From Chloroflexota bacterium (GTDB taxonomy: Bacteria; Chloroflexota; Dehalococcoidia; Lucifugimonadales; Australimonadaceae), in contig JADFQE010000002.1 of NCBI GenBank assembly GCA_022561985.1, positions 697-64,696 of the forward strand: a stretch of 64,000 nt of DNA, in the 5' to 3' direction. The position numbers and the translations under genes were made by a program. Position 1 is the stretch's first letter; each line of letters opens with the position of its first letter. The notes below the pieces were generated by a model. It did not search any database and had not been told where the DNA came from. It saw only the letters and a program-made list of their open reading frames with translations. Of this stretch, positions 48,610 through 58,802 are shown piece after piece.

Positions 48610-48897
48610 ATGGCAGAGCTGAACCAGGAGGTCCCGCGGCTGCGGGTCGGTACCGAGTGGATGGACCTGACCCTCGAGGCGGGGCCCTACATCGTGGTCA
48701 CCGTCCGCGGCTATTCGGCCGCACTCGCGGTCCGCGATGCGTCCGGGGCCTCCTTCGAGCTGCTGGCGGGCGCAGGCTCCATCTGCACGGGCATCGAGCT
48801 CCTCCGCGAGGAGAACGAGGGCGAGTACGAAGGGGTCCGTTTCAAGATCCGGCGGGAGAGCGCGGAGCGAACGGCACGATACGAGATCGAGGGCTGA
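48610..48897 (+). CDS. Hypothetical protein (95 aa)
   Basis: The ATG is preceded by GGAGGG. No recognisable domain. Confidence 0.4.
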   Translation: MAELNQEVPRLRVGTEWMDLTLEAGPYIVVTVRGYSAALAVRDASGASFELLAGAGSICTGIELLREENEGEYEGVRFKIRRESAERTARYEIEG

Positions 48898-48919: not shown

Positions 48920-49132
48920 ATGACGACCAACGTTCTGTTCGACGGGAAGATGCAGGAGCTGATCGCGGCGGTCCAGGAGCTCGATGAGAAGACGGCGGCC
49001 TTCAAGGCTTTCGTGCAGCCATCGTTCGAGCTTGGCGACTTCCACACCCACTACGACCCGGTCACGGACGCCGCCAAGGCCGTCCACGACGTCTACCACG
49101 AGCTGCTCCACCTCCACGGGCACGATCACTAG
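48920..49132 (+). CDS. Small hypothetical protein with a His-rich C-terminus (70 aa)
   Basis: The ATG is preceded by AGGAGAGG. The tail is ..HDVYHELLHLHGHDH. Confidence 0.45.
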   Translation: MTTNVLFDGKMQELIAAVQELDEKTAAFKAFVQPSFELGDFHTHYDPVTDAAKAVHDVYHELLHLHGHDH

Positions 49133-49137
49133 AAGGC

Positions 49138-49174
49138 CCCTCGCCCACGCCACGAGAGACCCGTCGGGCGAGGG
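49138..49174. terminator. Bidirectional hairpin between convergent genes
   Basis: CCCTCGCCC-(19 nt)-GGGCGAGGG, a perfect 9-bp stem. Confidence 0.5.
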
Positions 49175-49194
49175 TCAGGCGCCGGCCGGGCCGC

Positions 49195-49416
49195 TCAGCG
49201 GGCCGGGAATCCCGCGCGCGCCAACTGCTCCCTCGCCTCGTCCGGCGACATGCGCTCGATGTCCAGCGTGAGTTTCACGACCTGGGTCTTATGGTCGGCC
49301 GTTACCCTTTCCACGCCCGGCAGACCGCCGAGCTCGCGCACGATGCGGTGCACTCAGCCCGCTCAGAAGATCGCTTTGTCGAGGACCGTCAGCTCGATCT
49401 CTTCTATGGTCGCCAT
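49195..49416 (-). CDS. HMA (CopZ/MerP-like heavy-metal-associated) domain protein with two in-frame TGA codons at the CxxC positions. It is a candidate UxxU selenoprotein, or alternatively a pseudogene.
   Basis: Manual translation gives MATIEEIELTVLDKAIF-TGA-AG-TGA-VHRIVRELGGLPGVERVTADHKTQVVKLTLDIERMSPDEAREQLARAGFPAR-stop. The TGA codons are at 49363-49365 and 49354-49356. A GC-rich hairpin with a GGUCU loop lies at 49315-49333. The gene is not in the ORF track because each piece is under 60 aa. Confidence 0.45.
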
Positions 49417-49487
49417 GGCGGGTATCTTACGCGCATGACGGGAACCCCACGAACGCTAGGGCAGTGGGGTGCTTGGAGCCTCAGGCG

Positions 49488-56963: not shown

Positions 56964-58802
56964 CTACCGGCCGTCCCGCGCCGGCGGAGCAGCGCTGGGG
57001 TCGGCCGCCGGGACGCCCTGGCGGGCCGCGTCTCGGCTCCGTGCATCGTGGCGGACGCCGAGCCGAAGTCCGAATCTCCGTGCGACCAGCGCGACGCCGA
57101 CCGTCATCATGATGATGACGATGGTGACGACACCGGCCTCCTCCCGCATCCCGAGGCCCGGCGAGGACAGCTCCAAAGTCAGTATGGACAGTGTCTTGGT
57201 GCCAATGGCCGACAGCAGGATGATGCTGCTGGTCGTCGAGGCAGCCAACACGAAGTTGAAGGTGCCCAGGAGGATCAGCGTGGGCATGATCAGGGGCAGC
57301 CAGACGCGCAGGTAGGTCTGGACCCAGCTCGCGCCGGCGATCCGCGAGGCCTCCTCGAGCTCCGACCCGAGCTGGATGAACACGCCCTTGATGAACGTCG
57401 TGCTCGTCAGCTTGCCCTGGAGGATGACGACCAGTATGAGGAGGTAGATGGTGCCGTAGAGGGGCAGGAAGGGGCGCCAGCCGAAGAGCTCGGTGCCCAG
57501 GACCGCCCAGAGCAGCCCGATGCTGGACAGGATGCCCGGGATGGCGGCCGAGAGCCAGATCATTGTCTCCAGCGCCGCCCTGAACCGCCACTTCGTACGC
57601 ACCAGGATGTAGGCGAAGATGGAGAAGAGGACCGGGCTGATCAATGCCGTCGAAAAGGCCAGGATCAGGGTCGTCCTGATCCCGTCCCAGAACTGCCCAT
57701 CGTTGAACACGAACTTCCAGTGATCGAGCGTGAATATCGGCTGCCACTCGAAGTAGCCGATGCGGTTCATGAAGCTACCCAGGATGAGCGAGAGGAACGG
57801 CGCGACGGTCAGCAGGAAGATGAGCGTCACGATGCCGCCGAAGATCACCCAGCGCCACCGGCCGATGTCGATGTAGCCGGGGCGGAAGCGCCCCGTCACC
57901 GTCTCGAAGTTCCGCCGGCCGAGGAGCCAACGCTGGAGCGGCAGCAGGATCGCAATCATGATTATCGTGATCGAGCCGAGCGCCGTCGCCTGGCCCCACT
58001 GTGGCACCTCGTCCCGGATCAGCGAGAAGAGCTTCGTCGAGTAGACGAAGTAGTTGAAGCGGACGCCCAGGAGCCACTCGATCTCGAAGGACTCGAACAG
58101 ACGGACGGTGTTGAGCGCGAAGACGACGACGAGGATCGGCGTCATGACCGGCAGCGTCACGCGCATCATCGTCTTGAACGTCGATGCGCCCGCCATGCGG
58201 CTGGCCTCCTCCATCGTGGAGTCCATGTTACGGAACGCAGGAGTGAGCAGCATCACCTTGGCCGAGATCGCCGTGGACAGGAGATGCACCAGCACGATTC
58301 CAGGGACGCTGAAGATATCGAAGATAAAGCGGTCGACGAACGGCAGCTTGGCGGCGAGGATGTTGATGAAGCCCAGGTTCGGGTCCAGCAGCATGATCCA
58401 TCCCGTCGCAACCGCGATGGTCGGGAACATGAACGACACCCAGAACATGAACTCCAGCGTGTAGCTGCCGGGGATGTGCAGGCGCGCCAAGGACCACGCG
58501 ATGAGCACGGCCACGGGGAAGCTGATGCCCGTGTAAAGGAACCAGATCAGGACCGTGTGCCAGAGGGCGAGGAAGATGCCAGGCTTCGTGAACGCGATCT
58601 GCCAGTTGTCGAGCCCGAAATTGAACCCCTGCTGGGGAATCGCCGACGTGTTGAAGCTGTTGATGAGGATCAGAAGGGTGGGATAGAGGACATAGCCGGC
58701 GAGCAAGACGACCAGCACAGCGACGAACACCGTGCTGTTGGCTGGCCGGTGCAACTCTATCAGAGGCCGCCGCCGGGTCAGCGTCTCACCTACCTTCGCC
58801 AT
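56964..58802 (-). CDS. ABC importer permease, fused double-domain (FbpB/ThiP-like, ~12 TM)
   Basis: 612 aa with two binding-protein-dependent transport inner-membrane modules. Confidence 0.8.
   Translation of the reverse strand: MAKVGETLTRRRPLIELHRPANSTVFVAVLVVLLAGYVLYPTLLILINSFNTSAIPQQGFNFGLDNWQIAFTKPGIFLALWHTVLIWFLYTGISFPVAVLIAWSLARLHIPGSYTLEFMFWVSFMFPTIAVATGWIMLLDPNLGFINILAAKLPFVDRFIFDIFSVPGIVLVHLLSTAISAKVMLLTPAFRNMDSTMEEASRMAGASTFKTMMRVTLPVMTPILVVVFALNTVRLFESFEIEWLLGVRFNYFVYSTKLFSLIRDEVPQWGQATALGSITIIMIAILLPLQRWLLGRRNFETVTGRFRPGYIDIGRWRWVIFGGIVTLIFLLTVAPFLSLILGSFMNRIGYFEWQPIFTLDHWKFVFNDGQFWDGIRTTLILAFSTALISPVLFSIFAYILVRTKWRFRAALETMIWLSAAIPGILSSIGLLWAVLGTELFGWRPFLPLYGTIYLLILVVILQGKLTSTTFIKGVFIQLGSELEEASRIAGASWVQTYLRVWLPLIMPTLILLGTFNFVLAASTTSSIILLSAIGTKTLSILTLELSSPGLGMREEAGVVTIVIIMMTVGVALVARRFGLRLGVRHDARSRDAARQGVPAADPSAAPPARDGR

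Follow-up and report, generated by a model that had tools for sequence, protein, structure and literature searches.

The window analysed here is a stretch of 64,000 nucleotides (nt) from a Chloroflexota bacterium (GenBank assembly GCA_022561985.1, contig JADFQE010000002.1, positions 697 to 64,696 of the forward strand). The subject of this text is one small gene on its minus strand, at 49195-49416. The gene encodes a single heavy-metal-associated (HMA) domain, and two of its codons are in-frame TGAs which fall on the two cysteine positions that bind metal in related proteins. We read it as a probable selenoprotein gene, with selenocysteine (Sec, U) predicted at both positions and, just downstream of them, a hairpin which is a candidate bacterial selenocysteine insertion sequence (SECIS). 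The window is 69% GC and has a strong periodicity of GC content at third codon positions (GC3). The features of the gene, in the coordinates of the window, are these:

49195..49416, minus strand: complete selenoprotein gene (predicted), 73 codons plus the terminal TGA, with a single HMA domain; MATIEEIELTVLDKAIF-U-AG-U-VHRIVRELGGLPGV...AGFPAR
49363..49365, minus strand: first in-frame TGA, codon 18, predicted Sec-1, on the first metal-ligand Cys column
49354..49356, minus strand: second in-frame TGA, codon 21, predicted Sec-2, on the second metal-ligand Cys column
49315..49333, minus strand: candidate bacterial SECIS, GCUCGGC-GGUCU-GCCGGGC, with a 7-bp stem and the 5-nt apical loop GGUCU
49313..49368, minus strand: recoding block conserved at the nucleotide level, which takes in TTC-TGA and everything up to and including the 3' arm of the hairpin; here the coding sequence is also constrained as RNA
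49195..49197, minus strand: terminal TGA, the true stop; the ...AGFPAR-TGA C-terminus is conserved across loci, and the sequence beyond it is not conserved

Re-translation of 49195-49416 gave a result identical to that of an earlier note on this DNA, in frame, coordinates and the positions of both TGAs. The frame opens with an ATG at 49416, runs for 73 codons to the TGA at 49197-49195 and reads MATIEEIELTVLDKAIF-TGA-AG-TGA-VHRIVRELGGLPGVERVTADHKTQVVKLTLDIERMSPDEAREQLARAGFPAR. It resumes after the second TGA with VHRIVRELGG and ends in AGFPAR before the stop. The earlier note also took the whole frame for an HMA domain of the CopZ/MerP fold, and the Pfam model PF00403 agrees, giving 40.7 bits with Cys placed at both TGA positions (cutoff 24.8). 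The match is independent of the Cys substitution, because the frame still scores 26.5 bits with X at both TGAs, and the 52 amino acids (aa) after the second TGA score 26.1 bits alone. The predicted product has no signal peptide, and its strand beta-1 starts directly at the N-terminus.

Exhaustive and profile searches returned 409 full-length relatives of the protein, mostly 73-80 aa long, which have Cys at the two positions. Their hosts are Chloroflexota, Dehalococcoidia and Actinomycetota metagenome-assembled genomes (MAGs), and their source names are copper chaperone CopZ, cation transporter or HMA protein; none of the 409 bears a selenoprotein name. In the alignment, both TGAs of the window gene fall on the only two invariant Cys columns of 115 full-length homologs, all of which have Cys at both (C-x-G-C in 115/115). 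The placement of the TGAs on the metal-binding cysteines, claimed in the earlier note, thus holds, and its proposal to look for Cys in the homologs was answered in the same alignment. Related loci were also read at the DNA level and are labelled L001-L027 below. The nearest Cys-form protein, P0009, is encoded at locus L026, where the DNA reads CAC-TGC-GCG-GGC-TGC against TTC-TGA-GCG-GGC-TGA in the window. TGC against TGA at both ligand codons is the classical Sec/Cys signature, twice over.

P0009 is 55% identical to the window protein and collinear with it, and its predicted structure was used as a proxy model. It has a ferredoxin-like beta-alpha-beta-beta-alpha-beta fold with a predicted local distance difference test (pLDDT) value of 94.6. 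Its Cys18 and Cys21 lie in the loop between beta1 and alpha1 and at the start of alpha1, with Cys21 in the first turn of that helix. The structural matches of this model are MerP (top), the metal-binding domains of ATP7B and CopA, and CopZ, at template-modelling (TM) scores of 0.8-0.9, and the best sequence matches among solved structures are the Cu(I) domains of ATP7B and CopA. In a neighbour-joining tree of 6 Sec forms and 115 Cys forms, the Sec forms are monophyletic and P0009 is their nearest Cys neighbour. The two groups also differ in the residue before the first ligand, which is His in 115/115 Cys forms (I-H-C-x-G-C) and Phe in all Sec forms (F-U-x-G-U; codon 17 of the window gene, 49366-49368). 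The switch from His to Phe strictly tracks the change from Cys to Sec. It may be that the His tunes the thiol and is dispensable beside a selenolate, or that TTC is favoured 5' of a recoded UGA.

Public annotation of the gene covers only 49195-49353 on the minus strand, a product of 48-52 aa with an internal GTG, beyond the second TGA, as its start. NCBI names such truncated calls 'heavy-metal-associated domain-containing protein' or 'cation transporter' (MCH7481740.1, 52 aa; MEE8518834.1, 49 aa; MCH7654467.1). A protein search returned truncated calls of 48-66 aa only, which is the signature of gene callers halting at a conserved TGA. The annotation could also be taken at face value: the product would then be an HMA fragment of 48-52 aa made from the internal GTG, and the 17 codons ahead of the first TGA would either not be translated or form a separate micro-ORF (a very short open reading frame, ORF). 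NCBI and other gene callers annotate precisely such a fragment, and it passes the Pfam HMA threshold alone, at the 26.1 bits given above. However, the fragment is without strand beta-1 and the whole metal-binding loop, so that, judged from the structure model, it would be unable to adopt the HMA fold or to bind metal. The GTG at codon 22 is not conserved, being GAG in L001 and GCG in L007. Purifying selection acts on the 17 codons before the first TGA, and these line up with beta-1 of the Cys homologs and begin at a conserved ATG. Translation from the internal GTG alone is very unlikely on this evidence.

The purifying selection is seen in the comparison of codons 1-17 with the window. The counts of synonymous and non-synonymous changes are 3/0 in L001, 4/0 in L006, 4/0 in L008 and 4/1 in L003. 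Because these codons change almost only synonymously, the stretch 5' of the first TGA must be translated and under purifying selection. On either flank of the TGAs, most substitutions are silent.

The two TGAs themselves are widely conserved. The exact 52-aa call is present on 17 independently assembled contigs, and sequencing error is excluded because the identical gene occurs on all of them; one of the 17, from the NCBI MAG GCA_022560295.1 (JADFTN01), matches the window at 98-99.5% identity along 19 kb. The Chloroflexota MAG B83T1L10 (JADFRC01) and GCA_036448115.1 are further assemblies with the gene. Codons 18 and 21 are both TGA in every locus which reaches the site (L001, L003, L005-L008, L012-L021, L027, L022/L023, L024 and L025), and the frame is conserved in L001, L003, L006-L008, L012-L024 and L027. 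About 25 loci keep both UGAs, down to ~50% protein identity. The carriers are a Chloroflexota MAG (L001), a Dehalococcoidia MAG (L022/L023, with MEE8518834.1) and metagenomes besides. The distant members, L022/L023, L024 and L025, were found by an exhaustive search with the part after the TGAs; at ~50% protein identity they show F-TGA-x-G-TGA after a conserved N-terminus. A pattern scan of metagenomes gave one true additional member and one chance hit. The earlier note had proposed such a comparison of orthologous loci, and it came out in favour of its reading: the orthologous and the more distant loci, read at the DNA level, keep both TGAs and the hairpin without other disruption of the frame.

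Two irregularities were seen, each on one contig. In L025 (54-200) the frame contains a third TGA close to its C-terminal end (..KQIE-TGA-AGFPAVP-TGA), where the other sequences have Arg, Ile or Ser; a third Sec, a nonsense mutation of recent date and a mistake in assembly are all conceivable. In L003 (700-764) the protein ends in ...AGFPAARPCPDALGATEELRGKWP instead of ...AGFPAR and the stop, as if one nucleotide had been lost immediately ahead of the stop codon and the frame lengthened thereby.

These irregularities bear on the idea that the gene is a decaying CopZ-like pseudogene, left behind after the loss of an adjacent metal-transporting ATPase gene (described below) and struck by chance by two nonsense mutations on its Cys codons. 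A change from TGC to TGA takes a single step, the ATPase gene is not adjacent in the window and in most close relatives, and both the additional TGA of L025 and the C-terminal frameshift of L003 could be counted as decay. Yet both TGAs are identical across lineages which are ~50% apart in protein identity, while other disruptions are otherwise absent in 20+ loci and substitutions on both flanks of the TGAs are mostly synonymous. The loci which retain the ATPase (L001, L007 and L027) carry the same two TGAs, and only in the TGA forms is the hairpin block conserved. The divergence of the loci also excludes recent copies of a single mobile pseudogene. Decay is therefore effectively refuted by the comparison, and we consider it extremely unlikely.

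The hairpin lies inside the coding sequence and has a folding energy of -11.9 to -13.3 kcal/mol. A 2026 review (PMC13188914 Fig. 2) gives the consensus of the bacterial SECIS (bSECIS) as an apical loop of 3-9 nt, an upper stem of 4-16 bp, a G in loop positions 1-2, a distance of 16-37 nt from UGA to apical loop, and a minimum free energy (MFE) of -7.5 kcal/mol or lower. The window hairpin has a loop of 5 nt, a stem of 7 bp, GG in loop positions 1-2 and a spacing of 27 or 36 nt, and so falls within the rules for both UGAs; the earlier note's description of it as a hairpin of the bacterial SECIS kind agrees with the published consensus. The 27 nt (from UGA-2) and 36 nt (from UGA-1) in that note are right as distances from the TGAs to the apical loop. 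They are wrong as distances to the start of the stem, where the note had put them; the stem starts 20 nt after the second TGA and 29 nt after the first.

An element of this kind to compare is that of E. coli fdhF, whose loop the earlier note gave as GGUC; the fetched fdhF element does have a GGUC loop. Like the window hairpin, it is a stem-loop inside the coding sequence just 3' of the UGA with an apical loop starting GG-U, and the core GGUCUGC is common to both. They differ in the spacing from UGA to loop, which is 18 nt in fdhF and 27/36 nt in the window. The window hairpin is also without the bulged U of the fdhF type and would serve two UGAs 9 nt apart.

The background in the window itself is this: of its 1356 TGA triplets, 10.8% are followed by a perfect hairpin within all four rules, and 2.2% by an equally good one. 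The match to the bSECIS rules is informative and not decisive by itself, and conservation is the stronger evidence.

The block GAGCTCGGCRGTYTGCCGGGCGT is almost invariant across ten distinct sequences. In these 10 sequences all seven stem pairs form in 100% of cells, the sole stem change being C-G to U-G, and the loop variants AGUCU, AGGCU and AGUUU all keep a G in position 1 or 2. Third-codon positions are variable in 7/20 codons from the TGA to the hairpin, against 42/51 elsewhere in the gene (Fisher p = 2e-4). Among the six closest sequences alone the synonymous-site test is weak (p = 0.04-0.13), and it becomes significant only after the divergent members are added. Pairwise identity is 93% in the hairpin against 72% in the downstream coding sequence. 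The 5' arm of the hairpin encodes ELG[GSR], a tetrapeptide which occurs in no Cys form (these have ALRR, ALKQ and similar there), and the hairpin is absent at the equivalent site of the Cys locus L026. Ahead of the main hairpin, a second helix was considered tentatively and rejected as unsupported, since it is 77.5% paired and has inconsistent pairs.

TGA is otherwise an ordinary stop in the window, as the earlier note said. Among 37 confident genes, TAG is the stop of 23, TGA of 8 and TAA of 6; such a dominance of TAG is unusual at 69% GC, where TGA normally prevails. A genome-wide reassignment of TGA to Trp or Gly (codes 4 and 25) would make TGA rare as a stop, and it is indeed under-used for a genome of this GC content (8/37, with TAG at 23). 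But TGA ends those 8 confident genes and also this gene, at its conserved C-terminus, and no other in-frame TGA with coding flanks is found in the 64 kb and its about 55 genes. Trp or Gly at both HMA ligands would, moreover, abolish function, and every homolog has Cys there. The chance of reassignment is close to negligible. In a motif-aware six-frame scan of the 64 kb window, these two were likewise the only in-frame TGAs that had both coding flanks and a motif of redox type, and a stricter scan for in-frame TGAs over the same 64 kb gave antisense artefacts and ordinary stops only.

Because the UGAs are conserved, both of their flanks are under purifying selection, relatives have Cys at the same positions and a hairpin that fits the SECIS consensus is conserved with them, the gene at 49195-49416 on the minus strand is best read as a functional selenoprotein gene. 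Its predicted product is a 73-residue cytosolic HMA metallochaperone in which both CxxC ligands would be Sec (F-U-A-G-U). Judged from sequence comparison, we put the probability of this at about 0.8. The Cys/Sec signature and the predicted UxxU selenoprotein of the earlier note are supported in the same way, by the conservation of the TGAs, the Cys homologs and the fit to the SECIS rules.

In the mechanism we propose, SelB-GTP with Sec-tRNA(Sec) would bind the GGUCU-loop hairpin 27-36 nt downstream and decode UGA-18. The same hairpin would serve UGA-21, three codons on, and both spacings are within the natural bSECIS range of 16-37 nt. The third TGA would terminate translation, as there is no SECIS element behind it. 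That one SECIS may serve two UGAs 9 nt apart is a proposal.

Several points weigh against the selenoprotein reading. ARAGORN found no tRNA gene in the 64 kb of the window or in the related loci, and tblastn with E. coli SelA, SelB and SelD found no selA, selB or selD homolog in the window and the fetched loci. No further selenoprotein gene was seen in the window in the two scans for in-frame TGAs. Neither RNAalifold nor explicit pair counts revealed compensatory double substitutions in the hairpin, and part of its conservation coincides with selection on the L-P-G-V motif of the protein. When the 81-nt region is folded by MFE, a different pairing is favoured, and the stability does not exceed that of shuffled sequences (z = -0.5). 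A search of Rfam gave no SECIS or other credible family, either over the whole window at the gathering threshold or over 49150-49480 at E <= 10. On the other side, the phylum is known to use Sec: a 2006 census lists three selenoprotein families for Chloroflexi (PMC1794560 Table 2), and a tRNA-Sec of the 8/4 type is reported in Chloroflexi (PMC5389517 introduction).

The recoding could also be real and SECIS-dependent and still insert Cys rather than Sec, by means of a tRNA-Sec-like tRNA-Cys(UCA) and a SelB paralog (selC*/selB*). Sequence alone cannot tell Sec from Cys at a site of UGA plus SECIS, and selC* tRNA-Cys opal suppressors with an adjacent selB* have been described in delta-proteobacteria and Nitrospirae-like contigs (PMC5389517). 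For Chloroflexota, however, selC*/selB* is unreported, and the same paper cites Chloroflexi only for the genuine 8/4 tRNA-Sec. In all Sec forms the His that precedes Cys1 without exception in the 115 Cys forms is gone, which points to a chemically different residue rather than the same Cys, and it is hard to see what would be gained by keeping two UGAs and a SECIS if all they brought in were Cys. We regard Cys insertion as unlikely, though it is the least improbable of the readings set against Sec.

The genomic context of the gene gives a view of its possible role. In L001 the gene is followed, 15 nt on, by the gene of a P-type ATPase of 680 aa, which scores 603 bits against the copper P1B model TIGR01511 (cutoff 397). 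This ATPase has a CPH motif, a His-rich N-terminus and no HMA domain of its own, features which we take to be the CopB or P1B-3 architecture. The same ATPase is also found downstream of the gene in L002, L007 and L027. Its presence or absence is a polymorphism between the UxxU gene and the convergent ORFs that follow it (window 49133-49194 against L001 10223-12290).

This arrangement suggests a soft-metal chaperone which feeds a P1B exporter. The two selenolates would form a soft-metal site, most likely for Cu(I) and alternatively for Hg(II), and the metal would be handed to the CopB-type P1B ATPase with its CPH motif and His-rich N-terminus, which is without an HMA domain of its own. In the source genome of the window, a CopB-type ATPase would be encoded elsewhere or be absent. 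We give such a role, with Cu(I) favoured and Hg(II) possible, somewhat better than an even chance, and the link between chaperone and ATPase is circumstantial.

Three observations speak against this picture or its preference for copper. The window, L004-L006, L008 and L012-L021 cleanly lack the ATPase beside the gene. The divergent members L022-L025 have unrelated neighbours and no adjacent ATPase. As to the identity of the metal, MerP is the top fold match, as noted, and the nearest Cys homolog has a MerC-like neighbour. The latter is part of a compact operon in L026 (108-1706), which consists of the HMA protein, a weak MerC-like membrane protein (26.9 bits, cutoff 27.6) and a P1B ATPase with its own HMA domain. 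This operon hints that the wider family may handle mercury as well as copper.

The earlier note implied that a UxxU site in an HMA protein would be new, which overstates the case, as UxxU HMA selenoproteins are curated as NCBIfam NF041115 and treated in reviews. The concept of a UxxU HMA selenoprotein is already known by computational prediction, and the window gene adds a clade of such proteins. Forms of MerP and of HMA-ATPases with Sec were predicted in 2007-2008, and the Global Ocean Sampling (GOS) and Olavius censuses (GOS: PMC2398784) include MerP with Sec, a putative mercuric transport protein and a cation ATPase of the E1-E2 type. Two NCBIfam models are of this kind: NF041115, titled 'UxxU_metal_bind, metal-binding (seleno)protein', and NF045683, titled 'MerT/CopZ fusion-like heavy metal transport selenoprotein'.

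NF041115, like the reading given here of the window protein, describes a single HMA-like domain of ~74 residues with UxxU in the metal loop, and it rests on bioinformatic prediction only; by the convention of the reviewers (same domain plus same Sec motif) the window protein would be filed under the NF041115 heading. The window protein has 73 residues with U-A-G-U at 18-21, and its alignment spans positions 7-70 of the 74 in the NF041115 profile. The scores are 24.8 bits for the window protein, 22.8-27.7 for all Sec forms and 46.1 for P0009, against a curated cutoff of 95. Because these scores are far below 95 and like those of generic CopZ/MerP models, the Sec clade is not a member of the NF041115 equivalog and is at most a distant relative. 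It differs from NF041115 also in being nested in a Chloroflexota/Actinomycetota family of CopZ-like proteins with IH-C-x-G-C, and in its association, at four loci, with a CopB-type copper ATPase rather than with mercuric reductase.

The CopZ/Atx1 chaperones and the N-terminal domains of CopA and ATP7B (PF00403) have the same length and ligand positions as the window protein, and the fold that the proxy model predicts for it. The place of the gene immediately upstream of a copper P1B ATPase in L001, L002, L007 and L027 is that seen in cop operons. Unlike CopZ/Atx1, the window protein has ligands encoded by UGA and a Phe before ligand 1 instead of Thr, Ser or His, and in the window the ATPase is not adjacent. 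It scores below the cutoffs of the CopZ models (TIGR00003 25.5 against 62, NF033794 23.0 against 95, NF033795 19.2 against 91). The Sec-MerP of the GOS census (PMC2398784) and NF045683, predicted from marine metagenomes, are likewise HMA-fold proteins with Sec at a metal ligand. In contrast to MerP and NF045683, the window protein has no signal peptide and no MerT fusion, and its scores are low for both (MerP TIGR02052 15.4 against 92.55; NF045683 12.3 against 375). No mer genes were found in the window or among the neighbours of the gene there.

A more specific account of this Chloroflexota/Dehalococcoidia clade is that it arose by an independent, lineage-specific conversion of both CopZ-like ligands from Cys to Sec, with one SECIS, a change of His to Phe and use of the diselenolate protein as a donor to a CopB-type ATPase. 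We put this forward tentatively, and hold it to be rather less than an even bet. Such a conversion may have needed four codons of helix alpha-1 to change from ALRR/ALKQ to ELGG, which would build one SECIS for two UGAs 9 nt apart. The invariant His before ligand 1 may have given way to Phe, and the diselenolate may donate Cu(I) (or Hg(II)) to the His-rich CopB-type ATPase. If an independent conversion is true, the clade would be a tractable natural system for the use of a single SECIS with tandem UGAs, and for selenolates in metal trafficking as against redox catalysis.

Recognising the full gene corrects the public annotation, which holds a truncated HMA fragment of 48-52 aa. Metal-binding selenoproteins without a redox role are few, and a Chloroflexota/Dehalococcoidia clade now joins them. 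With its paired Sec and Cys forms, its strict switch from His to Phe and the ELGG imposed by the SECIS, the family is a compact comparative system for the selection of selenolate ligands and for tandem UGAs.

Upstream of the start codon lies one further feature of the gene:

49424..49429, minus strand: TAAGAT, a -10-like hexamer 7 nt upstream of the ATG, possibly a leaderless promoter

The earlier note saw in this hexamer a hint of a leaderless transcript. Its presence 7 nt before the ATG was confirmed, and the hint holds for the closest subgroup only: the window, L001, L003, L006, L008 and L027 share GCGTAAGAT at a fixed 7 nt ahead of the ATG, with a spacer that varies and no motif like a Shine-Dalgarno (SD) sequence. 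This suggests that the transcript may be leaderless in that subgroup. It does not extend to the divergent members L022 and L024, which, like the Cys homolog L026, have GGAGG-like SD motifs in place of the hexamer. A consensus scan found no full sigma-70 promoter and no intrinsic terminator. Structure in the intergenic sequence after the gene's stop is not significant (z = -0.84).

Directly upstream of the gene is a PAS hybrid histidine kinase, as the earlier note had it. On the 3' side in the window are two convergent small ORFs and then a CAP-domain protein. The two small ORFs are:

48920..49132, plus strand: convergent ORF of 70 aa which ends HELLHLHGHDH (a His-rich tail); it ends 62 nt from the gene's stop
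48610..48897, plus strand: convergent ORF of about 95 aa, in the same syntenic block

The first of these is the small convergent protein with a His-rich tail which the earlier note reported, and it was found where that note placed it. Neither ORF has a Pfam or NCBIfam match, and all close relatives keep both of them in synteny with the UxxU gene, whether the ATPase is present or not.

Finally, an ORF of 612 aa lies within a few kb of the UxxU gene in both the window (56964-58802, minus strand) and L001 (7985-9823, minus strand), in a different orientation relative to the gene. The L001 ORF is visibly repetitive and by eye has an NHL/beta-propeller-like look.

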